Positions 5,549-36,655 of a DNA stretch of 64,000 nt are shown piece by piece. Position numbers and translations under genes: made by a program. Under the pieces are notes generated by a model, which was not told where the DNA came from, searched no databases, and saw only the letters and a list, made by a program, of their open reading frames with translations. How positions within the stretch are numbered: the first letter of the stretch is position 1; every line of letters begins with the position of its first letter. Origin of the DNA: a virus. Lineage: Duplodnaviria; Caudoviricetes. The stretch spans positions 64,001 through 128,000 of IMG/VR virus record IMGVR_UViG_3300011008_000034, one strand, 5' to 3'.

Positions 5549-6259
5549 CTATGCGATATTTTTATGTAATAAATCTCTTAATGCTCTTCCTGCTTCAGTA
5601 TTATCTCTCAACCGTTTGATTCTAACATAAATTTTGTTTGTACTTTCATGAAGGTCTCTACTAATATCATTAATATTATAACCTTGTGAAAGATAAATAA
5701 TAATTTTTCTATCCAATTCATCAACTTTCGGGAAAATGTATTGCTGGAGTGATGTAATGAATTCGCTGTCAACGATTTGTTCTTTTGCGTTTTCATCCGC
5801 AATAATATTTTCCAAAGTCATATCACCATCATTTGACATTGCATTCATTGAAACAACACCGTTCGGAGCTTTACGTTTCAGTGAATTATCACGACCACGA
5901 TACATCCGGACATGATTCCGAGCTGAATGCCAGAATAATGTATTAAAACAGCTGGACCCGCCTGGTTCATATTTTTTTGCACAATTAAGAAGAACAGTAG
6001 CTAATTCTTGCACGATATCCTCATCCTTGTAAGTATTTGCTACATATTCGATTTTGCTCTTATAATGATTATATAAGTAATTGAATGCCTCTTTACATCC
6101 AAACTTATAATCTTCTACTGCAACTTCCAATGTTGGTTTTTTAAATAAAGGTTCTTTTGCTGGTTCTGAACATCTTTTGTGAGGAACGTCTTGATAAACT
6201 TTTAATGTAGGATTATTTGACAAAGAAAACTTTTTGGGGTGGTCATCAAAATAAACCAT
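5549..6259 (-). CDS. Sigma-70 family (SigH-like) sigma factor
   Basis: AFNYLYNHY…EDIVQE…FNTLFW (region 2) and C-terminal GYNINDISRDL…IYVRIKRLR (region 4 HTH). Confidence 0.8.
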   Translation of the reverse strand: MVYFDDHPKKFSLSNNPTLKVYQDVPHKRCSEPAKEPLFKKPTLEVAVEDYKFGCKEAFNYLYNHYKSKIEYVANTYKDEDIVQELATVLLNCAKKYEPGGSSCFNTLFWHSARNHVRMYRGRDNSLKRKAPNGVVSMNAMSNDGDMTLENIIADENAKEQIVDSEFITSLQQYIFPKVDELDRKIIIYLSQGYNINDISRDLHESTNKIYVRIKRLRDNTEAGRALRDLLHKNIA

Positions 6260-6595
6260 AATATCACTCCTCTTTATACATTATAAAAAATTTGAACTGG
6301 ATTATTAGTTGTGGCTAATTGTTATTATTTCTAGTTTGGTTTTATTATTTAAAAACCAATTTAGAATTTTGTGAAGAATGTTAAGATAATTTATTTAACT
6401 TATAAGATTATTATACCATGTAAATGCAAAAAAGTACACCTTCAAATGCAAAAAAATAGACATTTTTTTAGAAATTTTTTTTCTTTGAAATGTCTATTCT
6501 TTATAACTTATTTCTCAAAAATTTTAGCAAGGTCATTTGCTGTCAAGTTGTTTTCTTTTATATCTAATTTATCCATCCAACCTGGAATTTTATCA

Positions 6596-8449: not shown

Positions 8450-8791
8450 TCAATTTTTTATCTCAAAGGGAATGGATTGTGTAGCTAAACATTTTTTCAC
8501 AAAAATACGAATAGCTGTTTGCGTATCTAATCCTAAATTGTCCATTAGGGAAGTAAATTTTAAGAATTCCTGAAGATTAGCAAAATTATTAGTAGGAATA
8601 TCATGTTCTACTAAGAAAACTTTATCCTCATAATTCATTTCATTAATGTAATTATCTCGTTCATCTTCATCTTCTACATGTTCACGAATATAATCTTCAA
8701 AATAATCAAAAGCTTCCTCTGCGTCAGCAAACATTTTTACTTTATTAGCAGTAATACTTTCATTAAGATTTACAATAGCATATACTCTCAT
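8450..8791 (-). CDS. Small protein with C-terminal RelB/DinJ-like antitoxin segment
   Basis: LMDNLGLDTQTAIRIFVKKCLATQSIPFEIK matches the RelB/DinJ pattern LGL…AI.IF…IPF. Confidence 0.6.
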   Translation of the reverse strand: MRVYAIVNLNESITANKVKMFADAEEAFDYFEDYIREHVEDEDERDNYINEMNYEDKVFLVEHDIPTNNFANLQEFLKFTSLMDNLGLDTQTAIRIFVKKCLATQSIPFEIKN

Positions 8792-10422
8792 TTTGCATTT
8801 CCTTTCTCAAAATTGTTTAACATTAATTGAATATTCCGTCTTCCTGCAAATTCATTAATAGATAAATTATAGGCAATATTAATTATATTTTCATTGTCAA
8901 ATTCTTGCATAAAATGATTCATTGTGGAATTAAAACAAATTCCATCAAATGTTACTCCATTCTGAAAAAATTTGAATTTCAATGCATTTTTCTTTTTGCC
9001 TAAAATTTTCTTTTCAAGAATTTCTACATTTTTAGAACAGAATATCAATTCTTTATTTCCGTTTCCAAATGGCCTTAGTAAATTTATTTTATCCATTAAA
9101 GTCCAAGATATATCTTCAAAATTTATTAAATAGTCTATGAGATATTCATCTTCAACATATTCATGTGTCTCTAGCCATTTTTTAAAATCTTCATTACACC
9201 GACGTTTAAATTCTTTCAAATCACTATTTTCTATAGATAATGCACAAGCTTCTGCATGTCCACCACCAGAAATTTTTAAATCTTTATTTTGAATAATTAC
9301 ATTAGATAAATTATATCCAGGAATAGACCGTCCTGAACCTCCAGAATGTGTTTTTCCTTTTACCATTGCAAAACAAGGTTTTTTAAATTTATCTGATATT
9401 TGATTAGCTACAATTCCTAATACACCAGCTGGAACATTTTTAAATGTCTGAATAATAACTAAATCTTCGCTTGGTTTTACTTCTTCTAATAATTTAGATT
9501 GAATTTCTTTACGTTTATCATTTAAAGAAATCATTTTTTTGACAATTTTTTCTGCTTCAAACTCATCATCACTAAGAAATAAATCTACTACCATGCTAGC
9601 GTCTTCCATACGTCCAGCTGCATTCATTAATGGTGCAATCGTAAAACCAATATCATTTTCAATAACTTTTTTTAAATTACACAATTTCAATAATGTATTT
9701 AATCCAATATTAGCAGTTTCTGTGAGATGATTTAATCCATGATAAACGAAAATTCGATTTTCATCTTGTAATGGCATAACATCCGCTAATGTCCCTATAG
9801 TAGCTAAAGCAATTAATTGAGGATTTAAATCTGGATATAACAATTTAATATCTGGAATTAATGCTCTAATGACTTTATAAGCTACCATAGCTCCACAAAT
9901 TCCATGGAAAACATTTTCATCTAAATAGGGGTCTACAACTATTTTACATGGAAGAGTTTTTTTATTATGAGGATGATGATCTGTCACAATGACATCAATT
10001 CCATTATCCATAGCATACTTAATTGATTCATGTTCTGCGATTCCTGTATCTACAGAAATAATCAAATCAATATTATCTTTAATACATTCGTCTATTTGAC
10101 GTTTTGAAATGCCATATCCATCTTTTACACGATTAGGAACACTATAACTGACATTAGGCGTTAATTGAGATAATCCTAACATCATAATAGAAACAGAAGT
10201 TATTCCATCAGAATCATAATCCCCTAATATTTTTATCTTTTCATTATCAAGTATAGCTAATTGAATTCTATCAATAGCTTTTTTCATATTTGGAAGAGAA
10301 AAAGGAGAATTAATTCTCCCCTTTTTATATAAAAACTTATTAAAGTCTTCGTCAGACATGGAAAAATATTTTTGAATAGAATGCAAAAAATCACCCTCAT
10401 ATGTATTCAAAATTTTCCACAT
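8788..10422 (-). CDS. recJ: ssDNA exonuclease RecJ
   Basis: GDYDSDG, PNRVKDGYG, VDTG, TDHH, GTLADVMPL, PLMNAAGR, GSGRS, GGHAEA, LRPFG. Start placed at MWKIL. Confidence 0.95.
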   Translation of the reverse strand: MWKILNTYEGDFLHSIQKYFSMSDEDFNKFLYKKGRINSPFSLPNMKKAIDRIQLAILDNEKIKILGDYDSDGITSVSIMMLGLSQLTPNVSYSVPNRVKDGYGISKRQIDECIKDNIDLIISVDTGIAEHESIKYAMDNGIDVIVTDHHPHNKKTLPCKIVVDPYLDENVFHGICGAMVAYKVIRALIPDIKLLYPDLNPQLIALATIGTLADVMPLQDENRIFVYHGLNHLTETANIGLNTLLKLCNLKKVIENDIGFTIAPLMNAAGRMEDASMVVDLFLSDDEFEAEKIVKKMISLNDKRKEIQSKLLEEVKPSEDLVIIQTFKNVPAGVLGIVANQISDKFKKPCFAMVKGKTHSGGSGRSIPGYNLSNVIIQNKDLKISGGGHAEACALSIENSDLKEFKRRCNEDFKKWLETHEYVEDEYLIDYLINFEDISWTLMDKINLLRPFGNGNKELIFCSKNVEILEKKILGKKKNALKFKFFQNGVTFDGICFNSTMNHFMQEFDNENIINIAYNLSINEFAGRRNIQLMLNNFEKGNAK

Positions 10423-10513
10423 GTTTACACCTCTTTTCATAAATCTTCTTCAATATCATCATAAATAATTTTATTAATATCATAATCAATTATTACTTTT
10501 TGTTTTCCATTTA
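10277..10513. repeat. Direct repeat copy A (recJ 5' end + endonuclease 3' end)
   Basis: Aligns closely with 11563-11800. Confidence 0.9.
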
Positions 10514-11498
10514 TACATAAATCATATGCTTTGTGTATATTTTCAAAAAGATTTTCTAATTTTTGTGGTTTTTTGCATTTTGTTTCAACAATTCTAATAA
10601 TTTTCCATCCATTACTATAAAGCAATTCTTCACGTTTAGATTCATTTTTAAAGAATTGTTCTTCTGATTCATTTTTCATTTTATAATATGCAAAATGTCC
10701 ACGTCCATCAACTTCAATACAGATTTTATCTTCAGGAAATGCAATATCCAATCTTTTACGTTTAAATTTATAGTTTAACTCTCCGCCAATTTTCAACCAT
10801 ATATATTCCTGTAATCTCGATGTATTAACACCTGTACCATGACTCCTATCCAAAAGACCTTGATTAATTTTTTTACGTATTTTAGGACTTTGCGAAATAT
10901 TACTTTCAACACCATAATTTTTTTGTAACGTTTCTAATTTCTTTTTCTTTATTATCTCACTTTGACAAACATTTTCAACACCCCAATGTTCCAATGTTGT
11001 TTGCGTTATGCGTTGTCTTATTTCTGGATTTTGTGAAACATTCTCAACTCCCCATCTTTCTAAATTTGTCGCTTTTACTTTATCTCTCACTTCTTGACTA
11101 CAAGTTGGGGCAATCCCTCCATAACGTTCAGTGTTTGTCTTAGCAACTTTTTCATGCCATAATTTTGTTTGAGAAATGTTTTCAACTCCGTATTTTTCAA
11201 ATATTGCTTTTTTTGTTCGCTCTCCAAGATATTTGTTAAAAGCTTTTTTGCATTCATCTGTTTGTCGACAAAAATGTTTTTCTTTTCCTTGAACGCAACC
11301 ATACGTTTTTTGATACATTGTATGACAATGATCACATATAACATCAACTTGTATAGAAGAGTATTTAGGTAAATCAAATACATTTACTTCTATATTTCTG
11401 TTTGATTCAGATAATATATATCCAAGATTTTCATAATAAGATTTATTTTTTTTATTCCATTTTGTTATATATGTTTTATCAATTATCATTAAAATCAT
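10437..11498 (-). CDS. Free-standing putative homing endonuclease (Zn motif, five 23-aa repeats, Vsr/DUF559-like nuclease)
   Basis: CDHC, repeats T(N)LE(R/K)YGVENxSQ, C-terminal LDIAFPEDKICIEVDGRGH…GWKIIRI. Confidence 0.75.
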   Translation of the reverse strand: MILMIIDKTYITKWNKKNKSYYENLGYILSESNRNIEVNVFDLPKYSSIQVDVICDHCHTMYQKTYGCVQGKEKHFCRQTDECKKAFNKYLGERTKKAIFEKYGVENISQTKLWHEKVAKTNTERYGGIAPTCSQEVRDKVKATNLERWGVENVSQNPEIRQRITQTTLEHWGVENVCQSEIIKKKKLETLQKNYGVESNISQSPKIRKKINQGLLDRSHGTGVNTSRLQEYIWLKIGGELNYKFKRKRLDIAFPEDKICIEVDGRGHFAYYKMKNESEEQFFKNESKREELLYSNGWKIIRIVETKCKKPQKLENLFENIHKAYDLCINGKQKVIIDYDINKIIYDDIEEDL

Positions 11499-11549
11499 TC
11501 CTTTTAATTATTTGATTTAAAATAATCAAAAAAGAAAAAATTTATTTTT

Positions 11550-11708
11550 TTAATATTGTATGGCTTTTTTCATGTTTGGAAGAGAAAAAGGAGAATTGAT
11601 TCTCCCCTTTTTATATAAAAACTTATCAAACTCTTCATCAGACATGGAAAAATATTTTTGAATAGAATGCAAAAAATCTCCTTCATATGTATTCAAAATT
11701 TTCCACAT
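11550..11708 (-). pseudogene. Duplicated recJ N-terminal fragment (52 aa)
   Basis: MWKILNTYEGDFLHSIQKYFSMSDEEFDKFLYKKGRINSPFSLPNMKKAIQY*, nearly identical to the RecJ N-terminus. Confidence 0.85.
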
Positions 11709-11800
11709 ATTTTCTCCTCTTTTCATAAATCTTCTTTAATATTATTATAATTAATTTTATTAACATCATAGTTAATCATTACTTTTTGTTTTCCATTTAT
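11563..11800. repeat. Direct repeat copy B
   Basis: See 10277-10513. Further eroded endonuclease 3' fragments continue to about 11860. Confidence 0.9.
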
Positions 11801-11901
11801 TATTATAAATACTATAAAGCAATTCTTTATGTTCATTTTTTATTTTATGATATGCAAAATTATATATAGTAAAAAAATTATTAAAAATTTTTAATCAAAG
11901 A

Positions 11902-11955: not shown

Positions 11956-12339
11956 GTGGTTCATAATGAAAGAAATCAACACAATATAGTAGAAAAAGAA
12001 CTTATTCTATTTCAGTCTATAGTAGACCGAAAATCGGTTGTAGAATCTACAATTAATCAAGCTATAGATAACCATGTGAAATCATATCCTAAACAACGTA
12101 AAATTTCTAGTACTGTTATTATTGTAACAAATTCTGGAGACGAAAAAGTAAATGAAGAAGCATTAAAAAAGGTTCATGATAAAATCATTACAGAACATCT
12201 TCAAGCAGTTAATCAATTAAATCATTTGAAATCATCAGGTAGTTGTAATTATAATGATATTCATTCTGTTCCACCACTATATCAAAATAAAGCAAGAGAA
12301 ATTATCGAAGAAAACAATTGGCTTATGAATAATGAATAA
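11956..12339 (+). CDS. Hypothetical protein
   Basis: AAGGAGGT RBS, GTG start. Confidence 0.6.
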   Translation: MVHNERNQHNIVEKELILFQSIVDRKSVVESTINQAIDNHVKSYPKQRKISSTVIIVTNSGDEKVNEEALKKVHDKIITEHLQAVNQLNHLKSSGSCNYNDIHSVPPLYQNKAREIIEENNWLMNNE

Positions 12340-12357: not shown

Positions 12358-13137
12358 ATGCTTACAAAAGTAGCTGAAAAACATTTTGCAAATGGTTCAG
12401 TATATGCATTAAAAACAGAAGATGGTTTTTTATTAGAAACGACTGATACATTCCTTCCTTATTATACGAAAGATGCTATTGGAAGAAAACAAAATTTTTT
12501 AGATAATAAAGATTTAGGCAGTAGAAGTGAACGTTGGATGATTGGTGTTTCTACTATGTCAGGTTGTTGTGTAGGATGTAAATTCTGTTCTACTGGTAAT
12601 ATGAAGAAATTTAGAAATTTAACTGCACAAGAAATTGTCGAACAAGTTGAATTTATTTTAAGTCTTCATAAGGAAAATCCTCTTGACAGTAAAGAATTTA
12701 AAATTAACTATACAAGGATGGGTGAACCTTTTCTTAATATAAAAAATGTAAAAGAAGCAATGTCTATCTTAAATAAATACAAACCACATCATTATATTTC
12801 AACTATTGGAATTAAAGATAGTGATTTTTCTTTTATTAAAGGTAATATTACATTACAAATTTCACTTCATTCGTTAGATAATAAACGACGTAATAACTTA
12901 ATTCCTTTTAAAAACAAAATGACTATTGAAGAATTAGGTCAAATTCGTACAAAATCAAACCTAAAAACGACTATTAATATGACATTGGTCGATAATGCTG
13001 ATTTTGATATTGATAAATTAAAAAAACACTTTGACCCCAAATACTTTTTTATTAAATTATCGCCTATTAATGAAAATGTTATTTCTAAAAAGAATCATTT
13101 AGGAAAAGGTATTGTGGAAGGAATAAATATTATTTAA
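12358..13137 (+). CDS. RlmN/Cfr-like radical SAM core lacking the N-terminal domain and the C-terminal AACGQL segment
   Basis: LET, GCCVGCKFCSTG, RNLTAQEIVEQV, RMGEPFLN, ISTIG, QISLHS…RNNLIP, LSPIN. The protein ends before the Cys355-equivalent loop. Confidence 0.88.
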   Translation: MLTKVAEKHFANGSVYALKTEDGFLLETTDTFLPYYTKDAIGRKQNFLDNKDLGSRSERWMIGVSTMSGCCVGCKFCSTGNMKKFRNLTAQEIVEQVEFILSLHKENPLDSKEFKINYTRMGEPFLNIKNVKEAMSILNKYKPHHYISTIGIKDSDFSFIKGNITLQISLHSLDNKRRNNLIPFKNKMTIEELGQIRTKSNLKTTINMTLVDNADFDIDKLKKHFDPKYFFIKLSPINENVISKKNHLGKGIVEGINII

Positions 13138-13438: not shown

Positions 13439-13659
13439 AAGAAAAATTTTGCAAAGAACAACTTCAAGATATACTTGATTTTTACGAATTTTGTAAAACG
13501 AAGAATAAGAAATTTCTTTATGTCAAAACGAATGAAAATAAAACTGGAGTGAACGTCATTAATCATGTAAAAGAAATGGTTAACCTTTATACTAATAAAA
13601 ACGAATTCTTAAAAGATGCCGAAAGAATTTTTAATTTAGTAAAGGATGATGAAAAATGA
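13429..13659 (+). CDS. Hypothetical protein
   Basis: Overlap-coupled ORF in the operon. Confidence 0.55.
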   Translation: MSMKEKFCKEQLQDILDFYEFCKTKNKKFLYVKTNENKTGVNVINHVKEMVNLYTNKNEFLKDAERIFNLVKDDEK

Positions 13660-14036
13660 ACAATATAAAAGAACAAATTGAATTCGTATTAGATTGGTGT
13701 GAATTTCAAGAATCAAAAGGAAAACCAGCAAGACTAGATATTATTTTATCTTCTGAAGATATTGATGAAGAAGTAAAAAATATTTTTAATTGTATTGGTT
13801 ACTTAAATAAACATTTATCAAAAGATGAATTAATAAACATTATTAATAAAGCGGAAAATGCCGAAAGCGAATATCAAAGTCCAATGAAGTGTTGTATTAA
13901 AAGAAAGATGGTTGGAGATGGCTGTATGAGCAGTACTCGTTACGTTGAATATTGTGTAGCAGCAGAAAATTGTACAAATGAAGAATGTTTATATGCTACT
14001 CGAAAAAAGAAAAGAGAACATTCTTCTTTTTGTTAA
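13656..14036 (+). CDS. Hypothetical protein with Cys-rich C-terminus
   Basis: ATGA overlap; KCC…GC…YC…C…C. Confidence 0.55.
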   Translation: MNNIKEQIEFVLDWCEFQESKGKPARLDIILSSEDIDEEVKNIFNCIGYLNKHLSKDELINIINKAENAESEYQSPMKCCIKRKMVGDGCMSSTRYVEYCVAAENCTNEECLYATRKKKREHSSFC

Positions 14037-14047
14037 AGGATTATACA

Positions 14048-14909
14048 ATGAAAATTTTCGATTATGATATTCAAACAAAACAATATTATTGTCAATTAAA
14101 TAATCATCCATTAAAAAAAATTCCTTCTTCTACTATAAATGTTTATGTACGATTACAAAATGTTTGTAATGCAAAATGTAAATTCTGCGAATTTAAAGGC
14201 AATTATATCCCTTTTAATGAAAAAGGATTTAGAGAAGCATTAGAAGAAATTCGTAGTAAAGTAAAAATTAATCGTTTATCATTTACAGGAGGAGAACCTA
14301 GGAGGAGAACCTACTTTAGATTTTGAACTATTTAAAAGATGTTTAAAATTTGTTCAAGATTTTGATAGTGATATTTTTACTGTTGTCAATACGAATGGAT
14401 TATACTTGAATGAATTAGAAGAATTAGGATTAAATAGTATTGCTTTATCAAGACATCATTATAATCAAGATAAAAACGATGAAATATTCGGTATAAAGAC
14501 ATCTAATATTAAAAATATAAAGAATTTACATTTATCATGCAACTTAATAAAAGGTTATATTGATAATGAAGAAGAAATCTTAAAATATCTTGATTGGTGT
14601 GATATGAATGGATTTACAGATATTGGTTTTGTTGCGCTAATGAAAGTAAACGATTATTGTAAAGAACATTTTATTTCACAAGATATATTTAATTTCAATG
14701 GTAAGCGATTCTTAAAAGTCAAAGAATATCATAATAAAGATATTCATAATGAACTTTGTTGTAAGTGTTGTAACTATCTTTATGGTGGTGATAATTTAGT
14801 CAATATTTATAGCAGGCATTACATAAAGTCTGATAATAATAATGCATTGGTTTATGATTTAAATAAACTAAAAGATGGATTCAATGGAAAAATCATTAAG
14901 GAGTGGTAA
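14048..14909 (+). pseudogene. Second radical SAM enzyme, frameshifted by a 13-bp tandem duplication
   Basis: CNAKCKFC and FTGGEP. AGGAGGAGAACCT occurs at 14287-14299 and 14300-14312. Removing one copy gives GGEPTLDFELF…VVNTNGLYLNELEELG, joining ORF 14406-14909. Confidence 0.85.
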
Positions 14910-14911
14910 AG

Positions 14912-15040
14912 ATGGAAGAAATTAAAAAACAGTTAGAAGACAATGGATATGATTATGCGGTAGCAATCGCAACGCAAGCAGAAATTGAAAATGGAGCAGC
15001 TTGTGGTCAGCTTGCAATTATTGTCGAAAACGAAGAATAA
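14912..15040 (+). CDS. 42-aa peptide equivalent to the RlmN C-terminal methyl-carrier segment (AACGQL)
   Basis: AAGGAG RBS at 14898; MEEIKKQLEDNGYDYAVAIATQAEIENGAACGQLAIIVENEE*. Below the ORF track length cut-off. Confidence 0.85.
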   Translation: MEEIKKQLEDNGYDYAVAIATQAEIENGAACGQLAIIVENEE

Positions 15041-15053
15041 GTTTTAAATAAGT

Positions 15054-15094
15054 AAAAAGCTCATTATCCTTAAAATTGGGATAATGAGCTTTTT
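15054..15094. terminator. Bidirectional intrinsic terminator closing the radical SAM operon
   Basis: aaaaagctcattatcc…ggataatgagcttttt. Confidence 0.8.
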
Positions 15095-15095
15095 A

Positions 15096-15875
15096 TTATG
15101 CTATTGTTTTAGTATTATGAACAATGAACTCTTTCAAGTTTCTCGGAAGTTCTTTATAAATATCTTTTTTATATTTCTCCCAACCATTCAAGGTATTTTC
15201 ATATCCAATATGTTCGCATACATAAGAATCAAAATTACAAAAATGACTTTTTCCATCTTTAATAAATTTCATTGTAATTTTTTTATTCGGATTTTCTTCA
15301 GCGAGACTCATTAGTTTTGTAAGAATCTTTTCATCGTCATGAATAAGGTTAACATTAATTGCAATTTCGTCTATACTAGTAGCGAACTGTCCATGAGAAA
15401 TATCATTAAAAGTATGAAGATAATTTGGAGTATAAATGGTCAAGTCATTAAAATGACCATCATCATATCCATCGCATGTCCAAGTTGTGCCGGTTACAAA
15501 AATATTATATTTTTTATGCCATGCAAAAAGTTGAATTTCATGTCGTTTTCTATTATATGCTTCAAATTGAAATTCTTTTTCATAAGTTTCAAATCCAAAT
15601 TTTTCAAGGACTTTTTTCGCTTCTTCAAGATTAATATCTGGATAGAAATCATCTGCTTCCACTCGTTCGCCAAGAGTTACAATGTAATATTTTTCAGCAG
15701 TTTTCTTTACCTTAGCAATTTTAAAGAAGCCTCCAGAAGGAAGTACTTTATCAGAAATGATTACTTTCCCATAAGCATCATATCCAACGAAAGACTTTCT
15801 ATTTCTCTTGCTATCATAAGAATCCGCGAAATAATATACATCGTTTTCTTTTACTTCGTTTTTAAATTTGTACAT
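15096..15875 (-). CDS. Hypothetical protein
   Basis: Start moved to MYKFK because a consensus promoter (15943-15971) lies inside the annotated 5' part and an AAGGAG RBS precedes 15875. Confidence 0.65.
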   Translation of the reverse strand: MYKFKNEVKENDVYYFADSYDSKRNRKSFVGYDAYGKVIISDKVLPSGGFFKIAKVKKTAEKYYIVTLGERVEADDFYPDINLEEAKKVLEKFGFETYEKEFQFEAYNRKRHEIQLFAWHKKYNIFVTGTTWTCDGYDDGHFNDLTIYTPNYLHTFNDISHGQFATSIDEIAINVNLIHDDEKILTKLMSLAEENPNKKITMKFIKDGKSHFCNFDSYVCEHIGYENTLNGWEKYKKDIYKELPRNLKEFIVHNTKTIA

Positions 15876-16888: not shown

Positions 16889-18094
16889 CTAAAAATCTTC
16901 CTCTTTATCACCGTAAATAATTTTATAAGTATTATAATTAATTATGACTTTATTTATGTCTGTCGTCTTTAAAATAGATTTAGCATAATCAATTCTAATT
17001 TTTATATCAGATAAAATTTTTTCATAATCACGACATGTAGTCTTTGTGTCAATAACACGAATAATCTTCCATCCTAAATTAAAGAAAAATTGTTCTCTAT
17101 CATATTCATATTGCAAAAACTCTTCATGAGTCATATTCTTAAATTTTATACAATATTTTTCATGTCCTCCACCATCATATTCTACATATATCATTTCTTC
17201 AGGAAAAGAAATATCTTGAGCTTTTTTTATAACTTTATAATTCAATTTTCCACCAATTTGAAGCCAAATAAATTCTTGCTGTTGTGAAGTAAAAACTCCT
17301 GTCCCATGACTTTGTTCAATAAACGTTTGATGAGCTTTATTTCGTAATTTTTCATTTTGTAATGGATGTTCTACTCCGTAACGATCTAAATTTGTTAACT
17401 TAATTTTTTCTTTTATGGGTTCTGCAGCAAATACATTTTCAACTCCCCATTTTTTCATATTTGTTTCCGCAATTTTTGCTTGTACCTCTGGATCTTGCAT
17501 CACTTGTTCTACACCACGTTTTTCCAAATTAGTTTGTTTAATCTTTTTTTTGCCATATTCCGATGCCCAAACATTTTTAGCTCCATATAATTCAAGATTA
17601 GTTTTTGCAATTTTTTCTTGTATCTTTGGAACTTGAAATGTAGATGGATAACCATACAAATCCATACACGTTTGAGCCATTTTTGCTTTTACTTCTGGGG
17701 ATTGCGATGCACATTCATATCCATACTTATTTAAGTTTGTTTGCTTTATCTTTGCTTTACCATAATCAGATGCCCAAACATTTTCAGCTCCATATATTCG
17801 CATATTTGTAGCTTTTCTTAAATCATCAGAATATTTCTTATGTGCAGCTTTACAAGCATCAGTACTATGACAAAAATGCATATCATGAACTATAGCTGCT
17901 TGAAACATTTTTTGAAAAATAACATCATCACAATAATCGCATTTTACGTCAATTTTCATACATGAATTAGGATGTATATCAAATACATTTACATCTACAA
18001 AATCTCCATATGCTAAATTTTGAAAACCATGTTGTTTGTAATAGTTTATATTGTGATATGTTATTTTCACTAAATAATTTTTATCTACTATCAT
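16889..18094 (-). CDS. Free-standing putative homing endonuclease with seven 23-aa repeats
   Basis: Paralog of 10437-11498: CDYC, repeats, DISFPEEMIYVEYDGGGH…GWKIIRV. Confidence 0.75.
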   Translation of the reverse strand: MIVDKNYLVKITYHNINYYKQHGFQNLAYGDFVDVNVFDIHPNSCMKIDVKCDYCDDVIFQKMFQAAIVHDMHFCHSTDACKAAHKKYSDDLRKATNMRIYGAENVWASDYGKAKIKQTNLNKYGYECASQSPEVKAKMAQTCMDLYGYPSTFQVPKIQEKIAKTNLELYGAKNVWASEYGKKKIKQTNLEKRGVEQVMQDPEVQAKIAETNMKKWGVENVFAAEPIKEKIKLTNLDRYGVEHPLQNEKLRNKAHQTFIEQSHGTGVFTSQQQEFIWLQIGGKLNYKVIKKAQDISFPEEMIYVEYDGGGHEKYCIKFKNMTHEEFLQYEYDREQFFFNLGWKIIRVIDTKTTCRDYEKILSDIKIRIDYAKSILKTTDINKVIINYNTYKIIYGDKEEDF

Positions 18095-35584: not shown

Positions 35585-36655
35585 GTGGATGGATTGAAGA
35601 AAAAAGAATTGTACGAACGAATCAATGAAATGGCAATGGATTATATAGAGCATTGTGAAGGATTCAACGAAGAACTTAGCATTAAAGCAATGGAAAAAGT
35701 TTTATCAGATAAACAAATTCATATTAATTGTTGTACTGGATATCTTGGAATGTCGAGCTGGTTATATGCAAAAAATAAGAACATTTTATTCGGGCCTGTA
35801 TTTCATCAATGCTTACATTGGAATAAGACAAAAGTATTTTTCTCTTTTAATGAGCAATTAGAACAAGAAATTCAAAATAGTAATTGGGACTGTACGGCAA
35901 ATGTTCCTGCTATTTTATTAAATCAATGTCCATTTACTTCATTTTTTATTCAAACAAATACTAATTTTGTTAATTATAATTATGAAAATCAAATTGACGG
36001 AAAACCGGATATTGAAGGAAAAGGATTAGGATTTTTTGTCACAATTTCACCAGGAAGAAAACAAGATAAGGAAACGTATAAGTTTTCCTTTAATGGCGAT
36101 AAAGTTATGGATATAACCTTTTGTGCTAATTCAATTGATGATGTTGATTATATGAATACATTAACAGTATCACTTGAAATTCCTAGCAATAATCAAGCGG
36201 TACAAATAAAAGATGCGATTATTTTCTCTCAAGACTATGACAAAGTTTATAAAGATGACGAAAAGAAAATTTTATTATGCAAAAAAAATGATATGGAAAT
36301 GTTAATCAAAGCATTACAGTATATTTTACATTTATGCTCTAAAAATAGTGAAATTATACCTAGAATGCCTGTCAAAAAATCTTTTATGACAAAACGACAA
36401 AAAGCCAATGCAAAAGTGAAATGTTACGAAATTAATCTAAAACCATCTGAACGTAATTTTCCTATTCATCATAATTCTCAGCATAGTGGAAATCATACTG
36501 GAGAAACAAGAAAAAGTCATGTTAGACGAGCTCATTGGGCTTTTCGCTGGTGTGGAAGCAAAGCTGAACGTCACCTGGAAATACGTTGGATAAAAGAATG
36601 CATTATTCATCCAGAAATGCAAAATGCAGGAACAATTTTAAATGTTAGGAGATGA
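35585..36655 (+). CDS. AcrVA2-like protein
   Basis: LLNQCPFTSFFIQ, LQYILHLCSKN, and C-terminal RKSHVRRAHWAFRWCG…IRWI (HxRRxHW). Confidence 0.6.
   Translation: MDGLKKKELYERINEMAMDYIEHCEGFNEELSIKAMEKVLSDKQIHINCCTGYLGMSSWLYAKNKNILFGPVFHQCLHWNKTKVFFSFNEQLEQEIQNSNWDCTANVPAILLNQCPFTSFFIQTNTNFVNYNYENQIDGKPDIEGKGLGFFVTISPGRKQDKETYKFSFNGDKVMDITFCANSIDDVDYMNTLTVSLEIPSNNQAVQIKDAIIFSQDYDKVYKDDEKKILLCKKNDMEMLIKALQYILHLCSKNSEIIPRMPVKKSFMTKRQKANAKVKCYEINLKPSERNFPIHHNSQHSGNHTGETRKSHVRRAHWAFRWCGSKAERHLEIRWIKECIIHPEMQNAGTILNVRR

Follow-up and report, generated by a model that had tools for sequence, protein, structure and literature searches.

To our knowledge, no class-A radical S-adenosylmethionine (SAM) methylases other than RlmN and Cfr have been characterised. 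The class is defined by two conserved cysteines, which in RlmN are Cys118 and the methyl-carrier Cys355 of the C-terminal tail and in Cfr are Cys105 and Cys338. Here we describe a gene pair from a virus of the Caudoviricetes, located in a stretch of 64,000 nucleotides that was analysed as a whole (positions 64,001 to 128,000 of IMG/VR record IMGVR_UViG_3300011008_000034; hereafter the window). One gene encodes an RlmN/Cfr-like core protein with glycine at the position of Cys118, and the other encodes the cysteine-bearing tail as a separate acidic peptide of 42 amino acids. We estimate a probability of roughly 0.5 that core and peptide together form a two-subunit class-A (RlmN/Cfr-type) radical SAM enzyme that turns over without Cys118.

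For RlmN, the C2-methyltransferase of 23S rRNA A2503 and tRNA A37 (TIGR00048; 3RFA, 4PL1, 5HR7, 6FZ6), Cys118 is, according to a 2022 review, a general base that sets off radical fragmentation, and a disulfide is no longer deemed obligatory; deprotonation at C2 leads to this step, after which the Cys355 thiyl radical is reduced by a source as yet unidentified (PMC9692996). Cfr is the C8-methyltransferase of A2503 (TIGR04432; 9P0P). The E. coli RlmN variant C118A (4PL1, 5HR6/5HR7) lacks a thiol at this position and is thereby the laboratory counterpart of the natural state described here. However, it represents an engineered loss in an enzyme tuned to Cys118, whereas the phage family has done without this cysteine from a deep branch onwards and is clearly subject to purifying selection. 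The features of the pair are as follows.

12358..13137, plus strand: core gene, a 259-amino-acid RlmN/Cfr-like radical SAM protein (coding translation 12358-13134)
12544..12546, plus strand: codon of Gly63, the equivalent of RlmN Cys118 by alignment to RlmN chains, at the end of strand beta-1
12565..12588, plus strand: cluster motif C70-C71-x2-C74-x2-C77, from the sequence, with Cys71 as the extra cysteine
14898..14903, plus strand: Shine-Dalgarno sequence AAGGAG of the peptide gene, 8 nt ahead of its ATG, from the sequence
14912..15040, plus strand: gene of the 42-amino-acid acidic peptide, corresponding to the RlmN C-terminal strand and Cys355 loop (GYDYAVAIAT...ENGAACGQL)
15002-15004, plus strand: codon of peptide Cys31, the equivalent of RlmN Cys355, from the sequence
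15051..15097, plus strand: hairpin terminator closing the operon (-26.6 kcal/mol, z = -8.5), which also faces a convergent minus-strand gene

Based on profile searches, the core is a true relative of RlmN and Cfr, yet it falls outside the family by the curated cut-offs. The RlmN model TIGR00048 matched with an E-value of 9e-24 but reached only 84 bits against a cut-off of 290, and the match covered no more than model positions 102-265 of 355. Cfr models matched at about 1e-16, with 58 bits against a cut-off of 550 for TIGR04432, and the match to PF04055 (7e-9) was above its cut-off. The best sequence match in the Protein Data Bank (PDB) was RlmN at 8e-11, and the core was assigned to phrog_24834 at 2.9e-18. 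No match for the core was found in the PADLOC defence library. The AlphaFold2 model of the core had a mean predicted local distance difference test score (pLDDT) of 89.6 and a predicted template modelling score (pTM) of 0.88. Its 11 best PDB fold matches were RlmN and Cfr (TMq 0.58-0.68), and the next fold in the search was five orders of magnitude weaker.

RlmN is thus the best match of the core in both sequence and fold. The phage pair has in common with it the CxxxCxxC, xMGEP, STxG and SLH motifs (in the core CxxxCxxC, RMGEP, STIG and ISLH, together with R178), the N-terminal beta-extension, and the AACGQL tail after a beta-strand. It differs in that the tail is a separate product with a short acidic C-terminus after its cysteine, in the replacement of Cys118 by glycine, and in the missing N-terminal helical domain; only about 30 residues stand ahead of the beta-extension, the N-terminus of the core model consists of a three-stranded beta-extension (strands within residues 3-33) that leaves no space for such a domain, and the protein stops at residue 259 without the methyl-carrier cysteine tail. 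With Cfr the class-A architecture is shared (TMq 0.58), and the differences are the same as those from RlmN; nothing suggests an antibiotic-resistance role for the phage pair.

The stretch ERWMIGVSTMSGCCVGCKFCSTGN represents core residues 58-81 (12529-12600 in translation), in which a strand of residues 59-63 in the AlphaFold2 model holds Gly63. In gap-free HMMER alignments Gly63 stood opposite the cysteine of 6FZ6 and opposite the C118A alanine of E. coli RlmN in 4PL1, which bears out the claim of an earlier note on this DNA that glycine occupies the Cys118 position. The same note had pointed to an additional cysteine inside the cluster motif, and this is Cys71. In the alignment to RlmN chains Cys70, Cys74 and Cys77 are the CxxxCxxC cluster ligands, and these four are all the cysteines that the core protein has.

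The free peptide that the note had assumed is also present as an open reading frame (ORF), with its own Shine-Dalgarno sequence ahead of it and the terminator behind it. It lies 1.8 kb downstream of the core gene as the last gene of the same operon, and it ends with ...ENGAACGQLAIIVENEE. The stretch ...GYDYAVAIATQAEIENGAACGQLAIIVENEE corresponds to the last strand of RlmN plus its Cys355 loop. The net charge of the peptide is -8 and that of the core +10. A PDB search with a 45-amino-acid reading of the ORF from a GTG start (14903-15037) gave only chance matches, the query being too short.

We predicted the complex of the two proteins from an alignment of the core, an alignment of the peptide, a 4Fe-4S cluster and SAM. 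The prediction scored 0.81 in comparison to 0.00 for the best of three controls, although this may reflect memory of solved RlmN. Of 80 solved complexes, 58 attain this mark, as do 2 of 110 mismatched pairs; the calibration is approximate here as our own alignments and two ligands were used. Contacts agreed between runs by at least 81%, and the pLDDT of the partner was at least 71. In the predicted complex the peptide contacts the core over peptide residues 11-39: residues 13-17 pair with the last strand of the core at 230-234 (contacts within 230-236), and core residues 69, 77-79 and 119-121, corresponding to the cluster loop and the MGEP motif, are touched as well. Residue 71 is outside the core residues that confidently touch the peptide. 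As RlmN has been solved with its tail in cis, the result shows likeness to RlmN and is not an independent proof of the complex.

Homologs of the core at E<=1e-5 formed 2330 clusters at the 90% identity level, nearly all of about 260 amino acids, and the core was 65-96% identical to members of the split family. Core and peptide occurred together in 79 of the 80 IMG/VR loci fetched with the window protein; in these the peptide gene either abuts the core gene or lies about 1.1 kb downstream, beyond a second radical SAM gene (rSAM2) and a small class-I methyltransferase gene. Two more scans with divergent members brought the total to 85 distinct Gly-type viral cores, and a peptide ORF was present in the fetched flanks of 79 of them (about 93%). 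Throughout the pair family the peptide is a small same-strand ORF near the core with the motif G(Y/F)xYAVA(I/V)AT...AACGQL. Seven cultured phages carry the pair, namely Kehishuvirus 'tikkala', Moorella phage MTATph1, Pectobacterium phages Wc4, Arno18 and Arno162, Yersinia phage P778 and Vibrio phage D479. Position 118 is mostly glycine in the split family, with Asn, His, Asp, Thr or Ala in a few divergent members, and it is never cysteine.

Long homologs of the core were found as well. In 21 of 22 (P0126, P0276-P0295) an intein is inserted directly after CxxxCxxC, mostly with LAGLIDADG domains, and one intein-bearing protein (P0277) is 95% identical to the window core; another long homolog (P0275) has an N-terminal GIY-YIG endonuclease fusion. 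Inteins this frequent in a family this widespread speak for a function that matters to the phages, and the core gene therefore looks important to them. Full-text searches of the literature returned no paper on a split or Cys118-less RlmN relative.

A maximum likelihood tree of 92 representatives was used to place the loss of Cys118. The state of this position changes once on the tree. All rows with Cys118 fall in one clade (33 rows; support of 100 in the Shimodaira-Hasegawa-like approximate likelihood ratio test), which consists of true RlmN and Cfr and of short phage forms with a cis GGGCGQL tail. The latter, from Stenotrophomonas phage BUCTxx99, Vibrio phage PS17B-2, Salmonella phage Arash and Aeromonas phage Ahp1, are the nearest Cys118-bearing relatives of the pair; like the pair they are phage-borne and have no N-terminal domain, whereas they are single chains of about 310 amino acids with Cys118 and the tail in cis. 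The other side of the tree holds the phage split family and two further clades, B and C. Clade B (25 rows, among them P0227, P0198 and Bacteroides phage Versailles) has Ile, Met, Thr, Val or Asn at position 118 and keeps the tail cysteine, so that it poses the same mechanistic problem as the phage pair, but its tail (...GSNCGQ...) is in cis. Its operons contain an isochorismatase-family hydrolase and a thioredoxin-reductase-like flavin adenine dinucleotide flavoprotein (L093 488-3010; L094), and the hydrolase is fused to the clade B protein in P0198, P0207 and P0236. Clade C is bacterial (L084 2132-2971, L089 3039-3878) and has Gly118 and the last strand while the tail cysteine is lost; no trans peptide was found near L084 and L089, and the small ORF that follows L089 has no cysteine.

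The position of the tail varies within the split family. It is usually a separate gene downstream of the core, but upstream in L114. It is fused to the N-terminus of the core in P0128 and P0149, the latter also with a second radical SAM domain, and to the C-terminus of cores with Thr118 in P0183 and P0210. In one locus the tail is fused in frame to the C-terminus of an rSAM2 of the window type (L135 4103-5113, a single ORF of 337 amino acids), which links rSAM2 functionally to the peptide. In Vibrio phage D479 (L097 4303-4584) the peptide module (…EAGFDAGLAIATDAEV.AGAACGQMAIL…) is tandem-duplicated within one ORF, the only such case among 75 distinct peptide ORFs.

Judged from these comparisons, the loss of Cys118 is older and wider than the split, a single deep event shared with the clades that have their tail in cis, and the tail is a protein module that is not necessarily a free tag. 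The earlier note had proposed to examine whether glycine at this position co-varies with the split architecture. The association itself was found, with a trans peptide in 79 of 85 Gly-type loci, but the tree needs only one change of Cys118, shared with cis-tail clades, and a single independent change gives a test of co-variation with the cis or split state of the tail no statistical power.

We also searched for a residue that could take the place of Cys118. In 145 aligned cores the three cluster ligands are the only invariant cysteines, and a survey of cores and peptides from 106 distinct viral loci likewise gave no second conserved cysteine in either protein. Extra cysteines are present at window position 17 in 62 cores, at position 66 in 29 and at position 71 in 17, and in the 106 loci more than a dozen different positions are occupied. 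Taking positions 17, 66, 67, 71 and 72 together, 114 of the 145 members have exactly one cysteine there, with a background cysteine frequency of 0.65%, and all four cis-fused members have one extra cysteine in the cluster loop, although at differing positions. This pattern may reflect lineage-specific helper thiols or shared ancestry alone. Cys71 is limited to the subclade of the window, where it is kept in all close relatives (P0005, P0008, P0016, P0017); elsewhere the position is mostly Pro, with Leu, Asn or Ser in a few. In the pairs of L129, L134 and L193 the core has three cysteines, the peptide one, and there are none besides. A second cysteine is therefore no requirement of the family. 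The earlier note had offered the extra cysteine as an alternative resolving residue; as a general mechanism this cannot hold, given the three pairs without a second cysteine and the lack of any conserved one, and Cys71 as a family-wide resolving residue was rejected, its role being conceivable in its own subclade only.

If core and peptide act as one enzyme, the peptide would supply, as homology and the model suggest, the last beta-strand of the barrel and a flexible loop that places its cysteine beside the [4Fe-4S]/SAM site. By analogy with RlmN, this cysteine would be S-methylated by one SAM, a second SAM would be cleaved, and the S-CH2 radical would add to an sp2 carbon of a purine-like substrate. 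The adduct would then be deprotonated by another general base, which may be water, a group of the substrate or, in certain lineages, a cysteine at another position (Cys71 in this phage), after which the thiyl radical would be re-reduced and the complex would turn over. In many phages rSAM2 would act together with the same peptide. As the review sees in Cys118 a general base and not an obligatory disulfide partner, another base could replace it. Since Cys118 was lost long ago and the tail was kept, often in cis, the Cys118-less clade most plausibly uses another base or a more easily fragmenting adduct. Several points weigh against such turnover. Its main weakness is that no replacement base is evident: glycine is unable to act as a base, and among the columns conserved in the Cys118-less clades in comparison to RlmN no conserved Asp, Glu or His was found that replaces Cys118, the clade-specific changes being Arg120 (Gly in RlmN), Met67, Phe208 and Phe225. 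RlmN C118A yields no m2A (2-methyladenosine) and traps a Cys355-CH2-adenine adduct (PMC5130265, PMC9692996), so the premise of the earlier note, a stalled RlmN mutant, was sound. Furthermore, the separate peptide gene in about 93% of Gly-type loci and the tandem module of Vibrio phage D479 suit a consumable peptide; the latter favours it together with the strong ribosome-binding site of the separate gene. The same observations fit the reading of the earlier note, in which the reaction halts at the thioether for want of a resolving residue, and the sacrificial 42-residue acidic peptide stays S-CH2-linked to a purine of a nucleic acid or nucleotide, which would thereby be tagged, blocked or hypermodified, its separate synthesis allowing the core to be reused. 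The family-wide lack of Cys118, the three pairs without any second cysteine, the C118A enzyme that stalls as exactly such an adduct, and the strongly acidic peptide beside a basic core are also consistent with it. We nevertheless regard a permanent adduct as unlikely. In the fused forms (P0128, P0149, P0183, P0210, L135) it would tie the whole enzyme to its target, and clade B lacks Cys118 as well but has its tail in cis in metabolic-looking operons. The peptide is predicted to be an integral strand of the barrel, no conserved partner gene for trimming or reading a tag stands beside the pair in divergent phages, and no report of such an adduct was found in the literature searches. The comparative data, namely the cis-tail clades without Cys118, the fused tails and the role of Cys118 as a general base, thus lend the cross-link no backing; the single transition on the tree, the cis-tail clades, the four kinds of fusion, the tandem peptide and the pairs without a second cysteine together weaken the proposal.

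A minor part of the probability that we give to turnover without Cys118 belongs to Cys71 (RlmN position 126) as a helper in the window subclade. That Cys71 takes over the base or resolving role of Cys118 there, with other positions used in other lineages, is a tentative idea that we consider rather improbable. Its conservation in all close relatives, the one-cysteine pattern of 114 of the 145 members and the cluster-loop cysteine of all four cis-fused members speak for it, but the position is Pro in most members, L129, L134 and L193 do without any extra cysteine, the pattern tracks subclades and so represents few independent events, and residue 71 is not among the confident peptide contacts of the model. 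It is also doubtful, and a little more so, that the pair is no methylase at all and that the peptide cysteine donates a hydrogen atom or carries a thiyl radical, in the manner of spore photoproduct lyase or radical SAM epimerases, while the core runs another radical reaction. Two of the features that define class A are absent from the family, clade C retains the strand without the tail cysteine and thus uses the fold for chemistry without a methyl-cysteine, and the associated rSAM2 proteins are weakly like YydG, MoaA and viperin-type enzymes. However, the tail motif (G/A)AACGQL is nearly letter-identical to that of RlmN, which points to the same loop geometry and a methyl-carrier role, and there is no conserved tyrosine or second-cysteine relay. 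The small size of the peptide, the one or two radical SAM genes next to its own, the weak match of rSAM2 to peptide-modifying families (YydG epimerase, 1.8e-8) and a Cys-rich small ORF ahead of rSAM2 might instead recall a ribosomally synthesised and post-translationally modified peptide (RiPP), with core and rSAM2 modifying a precursor whose modified form is the functional end product. This we regard as very improbable: the C-terminal strand and loop of RlmN itself are the homologs of the peptide, which in the predicted complex completes the barrel, it is found fused to enzymes at either end, no leader/core organisation, RiPP recognition element, SPASM/twitch domain, protease or exporter was seen in the core or its neighbours, and most loci (69/106) are two-gene systems without rSAM2.

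In thousands of phage proteins, among them those of the crAss-like phages abundant in the gut, the methyl-carrier loop is kept, usually as a separate peptide, and the second cysteine never is. If these proteins complete the reaction by another route, this would bear on the debated role of Cys118 and on the reduction of the thiyl radical; if the adduct were permanent, the pair would be a natural enzyme that produces a peptide-nucleobase conjugate. The cultured phages that carry the pair make the question directly testable.

With the N-terminal domain missing, 23S rRNA A2503 is an improbable substrate. That this RNA-binding domain is lacking and that some relatives are linked to nucleotides suggests that the pair acts on something other than rRNA, and a nucleotide and a nucleic acid appear to us about equally likely. 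Against rRNA or tRNA stand the absent N-terminal domain, the acidic tail and a genome without tRNA genes; ARAGORN detected none in the window or in the whole genome of 177,647 bp, and a simple role in modifying phage tRNAs was therefore dismissed as a poor fit. Nucleotides are indicated by short relatives that are fused to NUDIX or HD/dGTPase-like domains or stand beside NAPRTase, NMNAT, or NamPT and Prs, and by weak matches of both common rSAM2 types to viperin and MoaA models. RNA is indicated by the homology to RlmN, the positive charge of the core and one short relative that lies within a phage tRNA cluster. In an all-against-all BLAST of the ORFs of 13 divergent loci only core and peptide were shared, and in the absence of another conserved neighbour the gene context gives no clue to the substrate.

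Among the short RlmN-like proteins with both cysteines, one (L085 2043-5374) is fused to a NUDIX domain. This gene and that of Vibrio phage PS17B-2 (L099 215-3906) adjoin NAD-salvage genes (NAPRTase, NMNAT and NUDIX, or NamPT and Prs). The gene of Stenotrophomonas phage BUCTxx99 (L095 3393-4352) lies in a tRNA gene cluster and is annotated, apparently wrongly, as prohibitin family. Another short RlmN-like protein (P0222) is fused to an HD/dGTPase-like domain.

The remaining genes of the operon in the window are the following.

11956..12339, plus strand: 127-amino-acid ORF immediately ahead of the core gene, with which the operon may begin, no function assigned, with a 124-amino-acid counterpart in L262
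13151..14036, plus strand: three small ORFs of 95, 76 and 126 amino acids between core and rSAM2, no family matches
14048..14909, plus strand: rSAM2, the second radical SAM gene, broken by a 13-bp tandem duplication at its GGEP motif

The break of rSAM2 is an exact tandem duplication with copies at 14287-14299 and 14300-14312. The closest relative of the window locus (L262, core 96% identical) has the same operon, with counterparts of the three small ORFs of 94, 74 and 125 amino acids, and its rSAM2 (5688-6536) is intact with 282 amino acids and one copy of the 13-mer. The disruption is therefore specific to the window phage strain, in which core and peptide must act without rSAM2. An intact rSAM2 of 288 amino acids is also present in L012. 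Second radical SAM genes near the pair fall into three types, and one or other of these is present in 37 of the 106 distinct viral loci, while the methyltransferase gene is present in 26; rSAM2 of the window type adjoins the pair in 14 distinct loci. PADLOC gave weak viperin-like matches for two of the rSAM2 types. A common origin of the second radical SAM genes was considered and rejected, as the window/L012, L003 and L087 types share generic radical SAM similarity only.

The 126-amino-acid ORF directly upstream of rSAM2 (13656-14036) is Cys-rich in its C-terminal half, and its first 25 residues are weakly like the preceding ORF of 76 amino acids (E 0.001). In L012 a Cys/Gly-rich ORF of 116 amino acids occupies the same place, with no sequence similarity to that of the window.

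Further upstream, the minus strand of the window carries a RecJ-like gene (8788-10440) that is preceded by an endonuclease-like ORF (10437-11498). Beyond the latter, within the region 8788-11836, a minus-strand stretch at 11550-11726 encodes a 58-amino-acid near-copy of the RecJ-like N-terminus, and a paralogous endonuclease-like ORF is located at 16889-18094. The phage genome has 28% GC in its 177,647 bp, and a motif like that of the anaerobic ribonucleotide reductase activase NrdG was noted outside the window, at position 35612 of the genome (C1).

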